DNA from: an uncultured Chloroflexia bacterium
GTDB taxonomy: Bacteria; Chloroflexota; Dehalococcoidia; DSTF01; JALHUB01
Length of the DNA: 64,000 bases
Assembly: GCA_963763495.1 (NCBI GenBank)
Contig: CAVXOY010000015.1
Coordinates: 38,574 to 102,573, forward strand
Direction of reading: 5' to 3'
Part shown: one piece after another, positions 41,544 to 52,400 of the stretch
How the letters are laid out: every line of letters begins with the position of its first letter
How positions within the stretch are numbered: position 1 is the stretch's first letter
Made by a program: the position numbers and the translations under genes
Notes under the pieces: generated by a model
What the model saw: the letters and a program-made list of their open reading frames with translations, nothing else
Databases searched by the model: none
Told to the model about the DNA's origin: nothing

Positions 41544-41572
41544 CTAATAACGGGACGCGTGTCATCCGATAA
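41544..41572 (+). promoter_or_regulatory. Putative sigma-28-type promoter of the GGDEF gene
   Basis: CTAAT-N16-TCCGATAA, 30 nt before the TTG start. Confidence 0.45.
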
Positions 41573-41601: not shown

Positions 41602-42489
41602 TTGGAAGCAGACAAGCTGCCGCCACGCGAAGATGACGTGTCCCCTGATGTCGGCGTTCCTGTTCCTCATGGATCGACGATCGCGGAGGACGGGCACTGG
41701 CGGGAGGCGCGAGAAGCCGCGTTGCGCAAAGTCGCCCCGGTGACAGCAACATCGAGGCAGCCTGTGGAATTGCGTGTGCTCAAGCGCTACTTGCTGGCAG
41801 CACTCGGTCTGGTCAGTATCGGCCTCTTGCTGGTAATCCTCGATGAGAGATCGCATGTCTCCCATCTAACTTCCGCCTCCGTTGTCTTGATGTTGGGCAT
41901 CATCGGCATCAGCTTTGTCGCCGTCTACCGGGCGCGCGAGGTAATGGAAGGGCTGATCCGAACGACAACCCCCACGGTCAGAGACACCGTGACCGGACTG
42001 CCGGACGAACAGTACTTCCGGCTGCGCCTGCGGGAGGAGTGCAAAAGGGTCGGCCGCTATGGGATCCCGGTATCTCTGGCGGTCATCGACGTCAATAATC
42101 TGGCATCGGTTAACGAGGCTTACGGCGATAGCTGCGGAGACGCTGTGCTGAGCCATATCGCCAGTGTGCTCGAGGCCACCAAGCGGGCATCGGACATCGC
42201 CGTCCGTCTAAGCGGAGACGAGTTCGCGCTGATCCTGCTGGAGTGCGGGAGAGATGACGCCGCTCAGTTCGTGCACCGACTGGAGCACTACGTGGCCCGC
42301 AAGCCGGCGACGGTGAGCGTCGAGACACAACCGATAACTCTGTGGATAGGCGTTACTATCGGCCTGGCGTCGGCCGCCAATGAAGACACGAGCCCGGATG
42401 AACTGCTGGCACGGGCCCGCCAGGACCTGCAGGCCGCCAAAGCCGAACGGGACGGGCGGCGGGAGCGCTGGACAAAGGCTTCCTCTTAG
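41602..42489 (+). CDS. Membrane-anchored GGDEF-domain protein (degenerate SGDEF, RxxD I-site)
   Basis: Two TM helices, then DTVTGL, VNEAYGDSCGDAVL and RASDIAVRLSGDEFALIL. Confidence 0.88.
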   Translation: MEADKLPPREDDVSPDVGVPVPHGSTIAEDGHWREAREAALRKVAPVTATSRQPVELRVLKRYLLAALGLVSIGLLLVILDERSHVSHLTSASVVLMLGIIGISFVAVYRAREVMEGLIRTTTPTVRDTVTGLPDEQYFRLRLREECKRVGRYGIPVSLAVIDVNNLASVNEAYGDSCGDAVLSHIASVLEATKRASDIAVRLSGDEFALILLECGRDDAAQFVHRLEHYVARKPATVSVETQPITLWIGVTIGLASAANEDTSPDELLARARQDLQAAKAERDGRRERWTKASS

Positions 42490-44524: not shown

Positions 44525-46236
44525 CTAGTGTTGGACGATGTAGGTCTGCGTCAAGAACAGTTCACCGTCAAGCCCCGCATCCATCCCTGTCAGGATGAGG
44601 CTCTTGACGTACGGCTTGACAAGGCGGACCCGCTCGCGATAACTGACGAATATCGCCGCAGCGTCGCTTAATCAGCACTTGCTGGGCCTGACTCCACAGC
44701 GCCAAACGCTTTTCAGGGTCAGGTTCAGCGATTGCCTGCTGCACGAGAGTGTCGAACTCGGCATTGCTGTAGCCGGAGAGGTTGCTGCCACCGGTGCTCC
44801 CGAAGTTCTGGGGGAGCAGACTGTCGGGGTCAGGATAGTCAGCACCAAGCCCTATCGGTACGATCATGAACTGACCCTGCATGATCGTGGCAGAGAACGC
44901 CCGCGGCTCCAGTGGCTGGAGTTCTACTTTGACACCGAGGTTCTCCTCAAACTGTCCCTGCGCGAACTCAGCTCGCAGCCGGTTGGCGCCGACATCGGGG
45001 AATTCAATCGTCACGCTGGGCATTGCGTCGGCACTGTAGCCTGCCTCTTCAAGAAGCTGCTTCGCCCCTTCAGGATTGTAGGCCATCTCCTCGCCCAGGT
45101 CGGGGTCGTAGCCCGCCGTCCCGGGCGGAATCAGGCTGTAGGCAACCTCGCCGACGCCAAACTGCACCTTGTCGACGAAAGCCTCTCTGTCCATAGCCAT
45201 GGCGAACGCCTGGCGAACCTTCGGATCGTCGAACGGCGGCGCATTGACGTTGAACTCGTAGGCAAAGGTGCCCATGTCGACAGACCGCACTAGCTGCTGG
45301 CTCAGTTCGGAATCGCCTTCGGCAGCACCGATGTTGGGAGGCGGCACCATTACCACGTCAAGCTCGTTGTTCAGGTAGGCGGCGTAGGCGGCATTGGGGT
45401 CGCCGATCATCTTGAGTACAAGCTTCTGCAGCTTGGGTTGATCCCCGTACCAGTAAGGGTTGGGCGTAAGGGTCATGTGGTCGTTGTGGGCCCACTCGCT
45501 CAGCACAAAGGGGCCGCTGCTGACGAGCTTCCCCGGCTCTGTCCAGCTATCTCCGAGTCCTTCCACGATGTCCTGGCGGAGAGGGTACATAGGCCAAATA
45601 GCAGCGACATAGACGAATGTGTAGCGCGGCTGGACGAGAGTCACTTTGAGGGTGTAGTCATCCACCGCTTCGACTCCGACAGCGTCTCTGAGTTGAGAGA
45701 GCGTAGCTTCGTCGACCGGCTGAGGGTCTGCCGGGTTGCCCATCGCCATGGTGTATTCCGCGGCACCCTGAATGTCGAAGTACATTGGAGCATAGGGAGA
45801 GCCGGTCATGAGGATCGAGTAGGCGCTTCACGCTGTACTCGATATCGGCGGCGGTAATGGGCTGGCCGTCGCTCCATTTGGCGTCCTCACGCAGCTTGAA
45901 AGTGTAGGTGAGGCCGTCATCGGAGATGCCGCCGTTGGTGTGCGACGGAACCTCACTGGCGAGCGCCGGCACAAGGCTCAGATTCTGGTCAAAGCTGAGT
46001 AGGCCGCTGTAGAGCTGTCGAATGACGCCGATAGAGACGCCATCCATCGCGAGATTGGGGTCGATGGTCTCCGGTTCGTTGCCAAGGTTGAGCCGGAGTT
46101 CCTGGACAGGAGCCAGTTCCTCGGCGGAGGGCTTCGTCTTCCCGTCGTCACCGCAAGCGGATGAGAAGACTGCGGCCAAGATCGCAGCTGTCCCCGCCAC
46201 CAGCAACCAGAGCTTCGATTTCGATGGTATGTTCAT
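44525..46236 (-). CDS. Peptide ABC transporter substrate-binding lipoprotein (OppA family 5); frameshifts near 45810 and 44670
   Basis: Lipobox AVFSSAC, EPETIDP, DGLTYTFKLR..AKWSDG, SSGPFVL and DPKVRQAFAMAMDR. Confidence 0.9.
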
Positions 46237-47461: not shown

Positions 47462-48955
47462 CTATGCCGCTACTCTCTCCTCCAGGCCTTCCGCCCAGCC
47501 ACCTACGCACTCCAAGAATGCCTCCACCACCTGAGGATCAAACTGAATACCGTTGTTGTTTATGATCTCATCACGCGCCTGCTGCCAGTCGAGGGCGCGC
47601 CGGTAAGGCCGGTTAGAGGTCATCGCATCGAAGGCGTCAGCGACGGCGAATACGCGAGAACCGAGAGGTATCTCCTTGCCCTTAAGCCCTAGGGGGTAAC
47701 CCTTCCCGTCATACCGTTCGTGGTGAGAGTAGACGATGTCGGCGGCTTTCTCCAAGAACTTGACGTCCTTCAGCATCTCATAGCCGATGGCGGGGTGCTT
47801 CCGCATCTCCTGCCATTCTTCAGCGGTTAGAGGTCCCGCTTTGTTCAGGATGGAGTCGGCAACGCCGATCTTGCCAACGTCGTGTAGCAGCGAGGCCCGC
47901 TCGATGTCCAGCCATTCGTCGCTACCATCCTTTATCCCAAGGCGAAGCGCCATGTCCATTGTGTAGACGGAGACGCGGCTGGAGTGACCGCCGGTTTCGC
48001 TATCCCGGGCATCGAGCGCGGCAGCGAGTGCCTCCAAGGTAGCATCATACGTTTCCTTCAAACGTGAGGTCATGGCGAGGATCTCGCGGTTAGCTCGTTC
48101 TAGCTGATCGTTCTTCCTCTTCAAGACAGCGACATTGCGGGCCGTCTTGTCCACGTACTGCTTGATCGCGAGGCGCATCATGAAAGGCGGGGCCACGAAC
48201 GCCAGTAGGCCGGTCGCGCCCAGCGCCCGATAGGAAAGAGCACAGGCCAAACCGAGCAATCCGAAGACCATGTAATGGGGGAAGAGCCACTGGAACTTCT
48301 CCTGCCAAATGGCCCAAGGCCTCTGTCGCGTGGCCAAGCTGGCGACACCGGTCACCAAGAAGCTGCTGACGCCGTAGCTGACGGTCGCCGCGACGAGAGA
48401 AGCGACGACCACCTGCGGCGACACCTTGATGGCGTTGTTATCGATCAGTCCCCAAAGCACAGCAGCGGCAAGGCCATCGGCGAGGATGGCGCTGCCGACG
48501 TTGAACAGGAAGCGGTAGGAAATGACGTTTCGGGGCAAATGTAAGCTGAGGGCGGTGATCGGAGCAGCAACAACCACGCCCGATGGCCCGTAGAGAACGG
48601 CGATGGCAAAGAGGCAGATGAAACTGACGGAGACTTTGCTGTCGCTGTAGACAAGTATGCTCAGGCGATCAGCGATGGCAGCAAGCGTCGTCAGCAGGAG
48701 CAAGCCGACAAGACCAGAGTGAGGGAGGCGGGGCGCGTAGACTAGCACCACCGCCATTCCCGCCAGAAATGCCGTGACGGACAGCAGCGAGGCCTGCCAG
48801 GGTAATGTGGGCGGCGCCATTCCCTCAGCGCGAGGCTCGCGCTCAGGCATGTGCGTACCTGCGCCTATGTCAGGGCGCACGGCGACGGACAGCGGTCGTT
48901 CAATACTGAGGCCGTTGTGGTTTTCGATCGGCTCTGCCCTGTCCTGCATAGGCAT
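47462..48955 (-). CDS. HD-GYP c-di-GMP phosphodiesterase with multi-TM (MASE-like) sensor domain
   Basis: About 7-8 TM segments, a coiled coil, ALDARD, LLHDVGK, HPAIG, HHERYDGKGYPLGLKG and ADAFDAMTSNRPYR. Confidence 0.93.
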   Translation of the reverse strand: MPMQDRAEPIENHNGLSIERPLSVAVRPDIGAGTHMPEREPRAEGMAPPTLPWQASLLSVTAFLAGMAVVLVYAPRLPHSGLVGLLLLTTLAAIADRLSILVYSDSKVSVSFICLFAIAVLYGPSGVVVAAPITALSLHLPRNVISYRFLFNVGSAILADGLAAAVLWGLIDNNAIKVSPQVVVASLVAATVSYGVSSFLVTGVASLATRQRPWAIWQEKFQWLFPHYMVFGLLGLACALSYRALGATGLLAFVAPPFMMRLAIKQYVDKTARNVAVLKRKNDQLERANREILAMTSRLKETYDATLEALAAALDARDSETGGHSSRVSVYTMDMALRLGIKDGSDEWLDIERASLLHDVGKIGVADSILNKAGPLTAEEWQEMRKHPAIGYEMLKDVKFLEKAADIVYSHHERYDGKGYPLGLKGKEIPLGSRVFAVADAFDAMTSNRPYRRALDWQQARDEIINNNGIQFDPQVVEAFLECVGGWAEGLEERVAA

Positions 48956-49090: not shown

Positions 49091-49118
49091 TTATCGGCAG
49101 ATGCCGGAGGTCAAGTAG
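49091..49118 (-). promoter_or_regulatory. Putative sigma-28-type promoter of the HD-GYP gene
   Basis: Exact GCCGATAA -10 at 49098-49091; weak -35 (CTACT) 15 nt upstream. Confidence 0.4.
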
Positions 49119-49955: not shown

Positions 49956-49990
49956 AAAAAAGCCGTCGTCGGTAGGTCACCGACGACGGC
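49956..49990 (-). terminator. Intrinsic terminator in the sigma-28 gene leader (riboswitch expression platform)
   Basis: Minus strand GCCGTCGTCGGT-GACCT-ACCGACGACGGC-TTTTTT. Confidence 0.88.
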
Positions 49991-50047
49991 AAGTGGTCGA
50001 GAAGGTTCTTGATAATGAACTGCGAGCGCTTTTTCGCTCCAGCAGAG

Positions 50048-50142
50048 GCCTTCGGTAGCCCAGCAACCCTATCCTTCCACGGAAGGACTATAGGTCGGAG
50101 GCTTTGCGTCCCCCTCTTTCGAAGGGTTTGCCTTTGTCGGTG
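50048..50142 (-). ncRNA. c-di-GMP-I (GEMM) riboswitch aptamer
   Basis: Minus strand AAGGCAAACCCTTC-GAAA-GAGGGGGACGCAAAGCCTCCGACCTA...ATAGGGTTGCTGGGCTACCGAA matches the class I consensus (GGCAAAC, GAAA tetraloop, GGACGCAAAGCC, ACCGA). Confidence 0.92.
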
Positions 50143-50562
50143 CCCGTCTTTACTGGTTAAGGTACTCACCGGCACCCTGGCCGGTGGGTGAACCCAACTG
50201 GATCACCAAAGCAATAACGAGGAAATGCGAAGAACATATCAGCGCCCGGCAAAGATCTTCAGAACAATTTGCGGAGCCTGGGCAAGTGCTATCACAAACA
50301 CAAAGGGGTGTTGGTTCCTACTTGGCGATAAGCGGAGGTATCTGCTATTCTTTGGCAGCGGAGGTGGGGGCTTGACGCTTTGGCTAGGATTGCAGGGCTA
50401 GCTCCAGTTGTCTGACAGTCCCCTTGCACAGAGCCGCAGTTGTCCATACCTCGGCGGCGGGCCAACCGCGCGTGCTACTTGAACCGTCGGGCAGTCGGAA
50501 AACCCTGAGAGAGGGCTGGCGCAGCGCCTTTTCCGGCCGACAATTACTTGGAGTATCTATCG

Positions 50563-51240
50563 TTGAACAGAACGATTCCCGCAAAGCGCCAGCAGAAGGA
50601 GCAGACACGAGCTCGCCTAGTGGAGGCCGCTCTCCGTGTCTTTGCCCTTCAGGGATACGACCACGCCACAGTAGATGAGATATCTCTGGCAGCCGGACAC
50701 TCTAAGGGCGCCTACTACTTCCATTTCGATTCCAAAGAGGGGATATTCCTAGAACTGCTGTCGACCTGGACAGCGGAGCAGACGCGACGGCTGCACACAT
50801 TTGAGGATGCCTCGGTCCCTCCGGCCATTGCCCTGCTCGAAACCCTTCAGTCTCTTCTTCGGTACGACGATAGGGACCCCCACTGGCTGTCGTTACTCCC
50901 CGAGTTCTGGGCTCAGGGTCACCGAAACGACAAGGTTCACCAGTTGCTGCAAAAAGCCTATGATCAATGGCTGAAGCTTCTCACAGACGCGTTCGAGAAG
51001 GCTGAGTCGGCCCGCCTTATCTCCTTGGCCGTACGTCCGGAGGCGGCGGCCAGTCTCGTCCTCGCCCTGCACGATGGCCTGGTAGTGCACCGTCGCCTGC
51101 GCCTGGCGGCCAACAGACCACCAGCTTTGCCCCAGACGCTCGGCGTCCTCATCTCTATGCTGACCACGTCAGCGGAACAGCGGCCAACCACGGAGATTTC
51201 TCCGCCGGTGGCACGGCGCACAGTCAGACGCACGCACTAG
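50563..51240 (+). CDS. TetR/AcrR-family regulator
   Basis: TRARLVEAALRVFALQGYDHATVDEISLAAGHSKGAYYFHF; TTG 50563 follows GGAG (the track start 50548 is also possible). Confidence 0.92.
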   Translation: MNRTIPAKRQQKEQTRARLVEAALRVFALQGYDHATVDEISLAAGHSKGAYYFHFDSKEGIFLELLSTWTAEQTRRLHTFEDASVPPAIALLETLQSLLRYDDRDPHWLSLLPEFWAQGHRNDKVHQLLQKAYDQWLKLLTDAFEKAESARLISLAVRPEAAASLVLALHDGLVVHRRLRLAANRPPALPQTLGVLISMLTTSAEQRPTTEISPPVARRTVRRTH

Positions 51241-51421
51241 GTCCCCTCGCACGGCTAACTCCCGAAGCGTTCCGTCCACTCCAGATAGACTGAGGCCAAA
51301 ACCCATTCTATGATTAGAGCTTGGCCGTCGTTCGTCGTATCCGGGCGAGCGCGAGCTAGACCAAAACAGGGCAGAACAGATATCTTGCTTCGTGGCAAGA
51401 AGATACGGAATCGAGAGACAA

Positions 51422-52400
51422 ATGTTTAACAGAATTGTAGTTACTGGGTCCCTAGCCTATGACCACATAATGTCGATGCCGGGTAGTTTTAGCGACCACA
51501 TAATGCCGGACAAGATCCACATCCTGAATGTCAGCTTCATAATGCAGACTTACAGGACGGAATTTGGTGGCACAGCCGGCAACATTTCCTATTCCTTAGG
51601 ATTACTGGGTGTCCCCACACTGATAGTTGCATCCGCCGGAGACGATTTTCAGGACTACCTAAGACATCTGAAGATGGATCAAGAATTTGGATGTCACGGG
51701 AATCAAACTCTTCAAAGATATCCCTACCGCCCAAGGATTTGTAACAACCGACAAAAATGATAACCAGATTTGGGGATTCTACGAAGGTGCTATGAAGAAG
51801 AACAGGGCTATTTCCCTCAAGAAATTCCTAAAGGACGGGGATTTTGTAGTTATCTCTCCAAACGATCCGGTGGCTACAGTCAAATTTGTAGGACAGGCTG
51901 TTCAACGTAACATACCGTATCTTTTTGATCCGGCCTTTAATATCCCCCATCTTACAAAAGAGGATCTTGGGTTCTCGGTAGAAAACGCCTCAATCGTCAT
52001 CGGTAACGATTACGAAATTGAGCTTATCAAAAGGAGGCTAGGTCTCAGAAACCTACCGCAAACAAGCCAGATTTGGATAACGACCTTAGGTTCTCGTGGA
52101 TCAACGATCAAGATGGGCAAAAAGGAATGGAAGATACCGCCAGCTAAGCCCAAAAGTGTTGTCGATCCAACCGGCGCCGGAGATGCGTACCGGGCAGGTT
52201 TCTTATCGGGTTTTGTTAGAGACTTACCGCTTGAGGCTTGTGGGCGTTTAGGTTCTCTCGCGGCCGCTTACACTGTTGAAAAACACGGAACGCAAACTCA
52301 TAGATTTGGCGTGAAGGAATTCAAGGACAGGTTCAAAGTAAACTTCGGGGCAGAACCTGCGGAGCAGATCGAGCGGGTGCGGAAGCGGGTCAGCCCGTAG
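51422..52400 (+). CDS. PfkB-family carbohydrate/adenosine kinase; frameshift near 51690; low GC
   Basis: VVTGSLAYDHIM, FGGTAGNI, FDPA, GNDYE, ITTLGSRGS and VVDPTGAGDAYRAGF. Confidence 0.92.

Follow-up and report, generated by a model that had tools for sequence, protein, structure and literature searches.

A canonical c-di-GMP-I riboswitch directly before a WhiG-like sigma factor gene in uncultured Dehalococcoidia, predicted to act as a transcriptional OFF switch

In Clostridioides difficile, the c-di-GMP-I riboswitch Cd1 is located in the 5' untranslated region of the flgB operon, which contains the sigma factor gene sigD (PMC9262584, PMC6200980), and its antiterminator, described as P[AT], is formed from the 3' strand of the aptamer (PMC9262584). 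In Streptomyces and other Actinobacteria, c-di-GMP acts post-translationally on a sigma factor of the same family through the RsiG-(c-di-GMP)-WhiG anti-sigma switch, which depends on a c-di-GMP-binding protein (PMC7005675). The locus described here lies within a window of 64,000 nucleotides (the whole stretch of DNA that was analysed, to which all positions refer unless another contig is named) from the metagenome-assembled genome of an uncultured member of the Dehalococcoidia (Chloroflexota), the relatives of which were recovered from peat and soil metagenomes. It resembles Cd1 in combining a class-I aptamer with a transcriptional OFF switch in which, as predicted for the window, aptamer and terminator coexist and compete with an antiterminator, and in both systems high c-di-GMP would lower the expression of a sigma-28-family factor. 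It differs in that Cd1 stands at the head of a long flagellar operon in which sigD comes much later, whereas the riboswitch in the window stands directly before the sigma factor gene; in that the C. difficile operon is flagellar, whereas no flagellar genes were found in the Chloroflexota lineage; and in that the antiterminator of the window is predicted to pair the 5' rather than the 3' aptamer strand with the terminator arm. The likeness to the RsiG-WhiG system is that in each a bacterium lacking flagella would have this sigma family restrained by the same messenger, by way of a protein anti-sigma factor in Streptomyces and, as the leader suggests, by way of RNA-level control over transcription of the sigma factor gene in the window. 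The class of RNA, OFF switching by means of a terminator and the restraint of sigma-28-family factors by c-di-GMP are all already known, and the riboswitch-sigma pair is neither a new RNA class nor a new mechanism; a full-text literature search of incomplete coverage returned no report of a GEMM-I element directly before a sigma factor gene, or of the circuit considered below.

The c-di-GMP-I (GEMM-I) aptamer occupies positions 50046-50145 on the reverse strand. It matches the parent covariance model RF01051 with 71.6 bits (gathering score 35), model positions 1-87 being fully covered. This comparison, which had been proposed in a preliminary description of the locus, bears out the consensus aptamer recognised there as being of the c-di-GMP rather than the cGAMP type from a G at the position equivalent to G20, read here as G50132. 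The predicted fold contains three helices, namely P1, with an outer part pairing GGGC (50145-50142) with GCCU (50049-46) and an inner part pairing CG (50139-38) with CG (50054-53), P2, capped by a GAAA tetraloop of the GNRA type, and P3. Outer P1 co-varies among the orthologues, in which it reads GGC/GCC, GGCG/CGCC or GAGGT/ACCTC. The remaining ligand-contact equivalents are the A following GACGC, corresponding to A47, and the C within CUACCGAAG, corresponding to C92, in the numbering of Vc2. All three equivalents, together with the GAAA-loop fold, are common to all 31 unique orthologous leaders. The Vibrio cholerae riboswitch Vc2, the type member of RF01051, has the same architecture, with a GNRA tetraloop capping P2 and ligand contacts at G20/A47/C92, and differs in the gene it regulates and in its expression platform.

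The aptamer also passes the gathering score of the c-di-GMP-I-GGC variant model RF03167 (66.6 bits against 59, E 1.5e-13, at 50141-50050), and clan competition in cmscan reports this variant as the top match at the locus, which favours a reading in which the RNA senses 3'3'-cGAMP or another dinucleotide, as do GEMM-Ib and the named variant classes. RF01051 nevertheless scores higher than RF03167, and in the cmscan alignment the aptamer has A opposite both upper-case consensus Gs of the variant, at model positions 37 (the A47-equivalent) and 74, as in canonical class I; with the conserved Gs of the variant absent, a GGC identity was rejected. An identity as cGAMP-type GEMM-Ib, which carries A at position 20, does not fit the G found in the aptamer and in 31 of 31 orthologous leaders. 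Since the canonical contact residues occur in all 31 leaders, neither the cGAMP-type nor the GGC-type reading is supported, and with GGDEF and HD-GYP genes present, a ligand other than c-di-GMP is regarded as very improbable. Judged by its sequence, the RNA at 50145-50046 is a genuine canonical c-di-GMP-I class aptamer, which would be expected to bind c-di-GMP.

Downstream of the aptamer, the leader contains a 26-nt linker hairpin (CUGC-UG-GAGCG-AAAAAG-CGCUC-GCAG, 50020-50045, reverse strand) that is present in every predicted fold, and at the same position most same-family orthologues carry a hairpin of other sequence (GCCGAAG...CTTCGGC). An intrinsic terminator was identified by terminator scan at 49956-49990 on the reverse strand, 56-60 nt past the aptamer. 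Its hairpin (49990-49962, GCCGTCGTCGGTG-ACC-TACCGACGACGGC) has a 13-bp stem of 12 Watson-Crick pairs and one G-U pair, nine of the pairs being G-C, with a 3-nt loop and a folding energy of -23.7 kcal/mol, and is followed directly by a U6 tract (49961-49956), the arrangement of a G+C-rich hairpin and U tract that defines Rho-independent terminators. The end of the U tract lies 39 nt from the ATG of the sigma factor gene (49916), the ribosome-binding site of which, GGGGGG, is at 49927-49922; the terminator of 12 bp and U6 placed about 40 nt before the start in the preliminary description was thus recovered with one additional G-U pair. The terminator is kept with compensatory changes in family f1, and the leaders of family f4 have different terminators in place of the f1 type.

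The terminator 5' arm is also complementary to the 5' half of the aptamer. The switching strand, P (GGGCACCGACAAAGGCAA, 50128-50145, reverse strand), forms the 5' half of the aptamer and consists of the segments GGG-CACCGAC-AAA-GGCAA, and its antiterminator partner, strand T (UUGCC-GUC-GUCGGUG-A-CCU, 49974-49992, reverse strand), consists of the terminator 5' arm and loop. The complementarity noticed previously between CACCGAC (50142-50136) and GTCGGTG (49984-49978) is exact, the one being the reverse complement of the other, and forms part of this longer pairing, for which RNAduplex gives an energy of -24.5 kcal/mol. Dinucleotide-shuffled terminator arms paired with P at -14.1 +/- 2.9 kcal/mol, with one of 300 shuffles reaching -24.5. 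In the 177-nt nascent RNA, extending to the terminator loop, the P-T pairing is the minimum-energy fold at -74.0 kcal/mol, as compared with -54.5 kcal/mol when the aptamer is enforced, and the full leader folds into an aptamer-like structure plus the terminator at -79.9 kcal/mol. Because the predicted P-T pairing takes away P1 together with the G21-C22 pairs framing the ligand pocket, and engages the terminator 5' arm, it would exclude both ligand binding and the terminator, as expected for the antiterminator of a transcriptional OFF riboswitch.

Co-variation of this pairing was assessed by comparing cognate with swapped P-T partners among nine clade representatives over 7389 rearrangements. 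The cognate energies summed to -177.3 and those of swapped partners to -143.5 +/- 6.6, and no rearrangement (0/7389) was as good as the cognate set. In the f4 leaders the P strands and the terminators both differ, and yet each terminator arm fits its own P strand: in locus L039, GUCAC/GACAG/GGC pairs with GCC/CUGUC/GUGAC, and in loci L038 and L041, CAGAGG pairs with CCUCUG. Co-variation within f1 is sparse because P and T hardly vary in sequence there, and the changes read directly from the f1 alignments comprised two compensatory changes, three wobble changes and four mismatches at helix ends. A Cd1-like antiterminator formed from the 3' P1 strand was also considered and rejected, as the P-T pairing is stronger than that of the 3' aptamer strand (A) with T in 15 of 16 loci. 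The co-variation across clades is the strongest support for the proposed mechanism and, together with the nascent fold, supports the earlier suggestion that an antiterminator would form without ligand.

The reading preferred here, to which a probability of roughly three in four is assigned, is that the riboswitch acts as a transcriptional OFF switch on the FliA/WhiG-type sigma factor gene. At low c-di-GMP the weak P1 helix would open and the 5' half of the aptamer (GGGCACCGAC..GGCAA) would pair with the freshly transcribed terminator 5' arm (UUGCC..GUCGGUG.CCU), blocking the terminator, such that RNA polymerase would read through and the sigma factor would be made. At high c-di-GMP the ligand would lock the 5' half inside the aptamer, the terminator would form, and transcription would end at the U6 tract ahead of the start codon. 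This logic follows from the compatibility of aptamer and terminator and from the only conserved competitor of the terminator being the strand that the ligand would withdraw, and the OFF direction already predicted in the preliminary description is made more plausible by the longer P-T pairing, the clade-level co-variation and the conserved arrangement of the locus. At the decision point the equilibrium energies favour the antiterminator over the enforced aptamer by approximately 19 kcal/mol, an advantage greater than a plausible ligand binding energy; for the OFF model to hold, the ligand must trap the aptamer kinetically, and tertiary contacts, which lie outside the energy model, must contribute. 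The opposite direction would make the element an ON switch for homeostasis, with c-di-GMP promoting read-through and raising the levels of the sigma factor and an HD-GYP phosphodiesterase, which would in turn lower c-di-GMP by negative feedback; the phosphodiesterase gene directly downstream would be a sensible target for such feedback, and ON and OFF switches are not separable by gene context alone. The terminator, however, is self-contained at its distance from the aptamer, and since the full-length fold contains both structures, a folded aptamer could not stop the terminator from forming. With the sole conserved, co-varying alternative pairing tying the terminator 5' arm to the strand withdrawn by the ligand, the ON direction is considered quite improbable.

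Orthologues of the sigma factor, with 53-78% identity, were found across the Dehalococcoidia order, and among 300 evenly sampled Chloroflexota genomes such orthologues (at least 53% identity) were confined to this order. When the sigma gene coordinates were cross-matched with the RF01051 matches, and with the aptamer core in fetched loci, all 44 assessable genomes of families f1, f3, f4 and f5 proved to carry a riboswitch at a distance of 90-250 nt before the sigma orthologue and on its strand, which extends to four families the position directly before the sigma gene that had been described initially. Among the matches listed, the 14 family f2 genomes show no riboswitch upstream of the sigma orthologue, and most of these 14 are without any GEMM-I element. 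Such a sigma factor gene was also found after none of the 29 best-scoring GEMM-I loci of other families. A decaying relic without regulatory role would not be expected to show the high covariance-model score, the compensatory changes in helices, or the retention of an aptamer before the same gene in four families with otherwise diverged leaders, and this explanation is given next to no weight.

Not all of these leaders appear to share the same expression platform. In seven f5 loci (L024, L025, L031, L032, L034, L035 and L037), the riboswitch-sigma pair has no intrinsic terminator and the linkers are C-rich. In five of the seven f5 leaders, the predicted accessibility of the ribosome-binding site falls once the aptamer becomes sequestered, and the f5 version seems, on these predicted folds, to be a translational switch, as compared with a transcriptional one in the window. 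The lack of a terminator together with the drop in accessibility indicates that the expression platform is evolutionarily flexible. The same observations give some weight to the possibility that the riboswitch of the window is real but works mainly through translation or Rho, with the hairpin and U tract serving as a constitutive attenuator or pause site; in the window, however, the predicted accessibility of the ribosome-binding site is alike in both states (0.21 vs 0.19), and the terminator arm bears conserved complementarity to the aptamer, such that this possibility is considered improbable and termination-based OFF switching is retained as the preferred reading.

The gene under predicted control (P0001, 49191-49916, reverse strand) encodes a sigma factor of 241 aa with sigma-70 regions 2, 3 and 4 in Pfam. 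Its score of 184.8 bits against TIGR02479 (FliA_WhiG, NCBIfam) is just below the cut-off of 189.6; matches to other families are much weaker, with only 107 bits against the SigB/F/G family. Among solved structures, its best relatives are those of Streptomyces WhiG (6PFV and 6PFJ, RsiG-c-di-GMP complexes; 3.8e-36), followed by E. coli FliA (1e-33). The genome encodes a second FliA/WhiG paralogue (C22:28455-29162, reverse strand) that is 39% identical to P0001, passes the TIGR02479 cut-off with 198.8 bits, is conserved across the order and has no riboswitch. Searches for flagellin and FlhA in 61 genomes of the order, and for FlgM in 31 genomes of the order, returned no matches, with control genomes positive in each case, and a flagellar role for the sigma factor (FliA in the narrow sense) was rejected on this basis. 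The absence of flagellar genes from the searched genomes indicates a WhiG-like, non-flagellar sigma factor, and the 'sigma-28' designation given in the preliminary description is to be understood as a family name without implication of flagellar function; the riboswitch directly before the gene, as described there, is upheld. In L011 (4001-4676), G014:C1:19485-20205 and G029:C1:1474488-1475196, the alignment of the sigma orthologue is spread over two frames, and these copies may be frameshifted or misassembled.

The riboswitch-sigma pair is embedded in a conserved cassette, the order of which is a divergent TetR gene, the riboswitch-sigma pair and a candidate HD-GYP phosphodiesterase gene behind a putative, conserved sigma-28-type promoter. 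The TetR-family regulator (50548-51240, forward strand; Pfam TetR_N and TetR_C_6) is upstream and divergent in f1, f3, f4 and f5 loci. The HD-GYP candidate (47462-48955, reverse strand, 497 aa), a putative membrane-anchored c-di-GMP phosphodiesterase, has several hydrophobic segments at its N-terminus, matches PF13487 (HD_5) with 128 bits and retains the motifs HD358, HHE411 and GYP419 intact; its gene is directly downstream of the sigma factor gene in nearly all orthologous loci. As the terminator scan detected no terminator between the two genes, the riboswitch probably also controls the HD-GYP gene. A diguanylate cyclase gene of the GGDEF type (41602-42489, forward strand; PF00990, 109.6 bits) is located 8 kb away within the window and, with the intact HD-GYP motifs, indicates that c-di-GMP signalling is present.

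The spacer between the sigma and HD-GYP genes contains, by sequence reading, a putative sigma-28/sigma-D-type promoter, CTACT-N16-CCGATAA (49091-49118, reverse strand). Promoters of this type are defined by a -35 element (C)TAAA, a 15-16 nt spacer and a -10 element (G)CCGATAA/T. The -10 element GCCGATAA is an exact match to the consensus, and the -35 element reads CTACT where the consensus is CTAAA. All 31 unique orthologous loci have CGATA[A/T/C] in the sigma-to-HD-GYP spacer, in most cases preceded by CTAC at a distance of 17-18 nt, and the spacers have diverged apart from this motif. The strict sigma-28 motif has 11 matches genome-wide against approximately 8 expected from base composition and is not enriched, such that its count is no evidence and only its position and conservation carry weight. 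A further motif of sigma-28 type, CTAAT-N16-TCCGATAA, was observed at 41544-41572 on the forward strand, 29 nt before the GGDEF gene. A sigma-28-type promoter that would allow autoregulation was not found before the riboswitch itself; the window has ACCAGTAAAG, and relatives carry a ACCGAATAG-like element just upstream of P1. Candidates before the other GEMM-I leaders of the genome were also rejected, as they only loosely resemble a -10 element (GCCGATTG, GCCGATTA) and lack a corresponding -35 element.

Several further features of the window and genome were recorded. A conserved block at 50240-50153 on the reverse strand, which separates the aptamer from the divergent TetR gene, consists of GATATGTT-N13-CGTTATTGCTTTGGTGA, then a hairpin (50186-50167, CACCGGC/GCCGGTG), the pairing of which is kept in relatives with a different sequence, and then GAG(C/T)A(C/G)CTTAACC; this block could represent the promoter or TetR operator, or an additional structure of the 5' leader. 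The 2.17-Mb genome contains five GEMM-I elements in all, four besides that of the sigma leader, located on forward strands at G000 C13:67545-67634, at G000 C15:102693-102784 (approximately 120 nt past the end of the window) and at G000 C15:124406-124540 and 124690-124809. One of the four precedes a gene for a secreted subtilisin-like protease, and two are arranged in tandem, approximately 150 nt apart, ahead of one gene. An OppA-like substrate-binding protein gene (44568-46236, reverse strand) is split into two overlapping frames, of which one of 192 aa corresponds to the N-terminal part of the profile and one of 413 aa to the rest, the result of either a frameshift or an assembly error. A PfkB-family kinase frame (51687-52400, forward strand) matches profile positions 81-297 only, and its N-terminal part may be encoded in an adjacent frame (51392-51760), pointing to a possible frameshift.

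A possible circuit can be proposed from the composition of the cassette, in which the conserved promoter before the HD-GYP gene would be driven by the sigma factor or its paralogue. Synthesis of the sigma factor at low c-di-GMP would raise phosphodiesterase expression, making the low c-di-GMP state self-reinforcing through positive feedback. On a tentative reading, held with less than even confidence, this non-flagellated Dehalococcoidia order may possess a self-contained c-di-GMP lifestyle or developmental switch, in which a riboswitch-gated, lineage-specific WhiG-like sigma factor would transcribe the adjacent HD-GYP gene, and possibly the nearby GGDEF gene, in a bistable positive-feedback loop that would constitute an independent RNA counterpart of the RsiG-WhiG system. 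The known restraint of FliA/WhiG sigma factors by c-di-GMP is indirect in C. difficile, through Cd1, and is exerted via RsiG in Streptomyces, whereas here it apparently acts directly on the mRNA of the sigma factor. The locus further suggests that one aptamer is served by different expression platforms within a single order, with a terminator in some families and, in one other, what looks like masking of the ribosome-binding site. The conserved three-gene cassette offers a compact and testable model for c-di-GMP-dependent decisions of uncultured soil and peat Chloroflexota.
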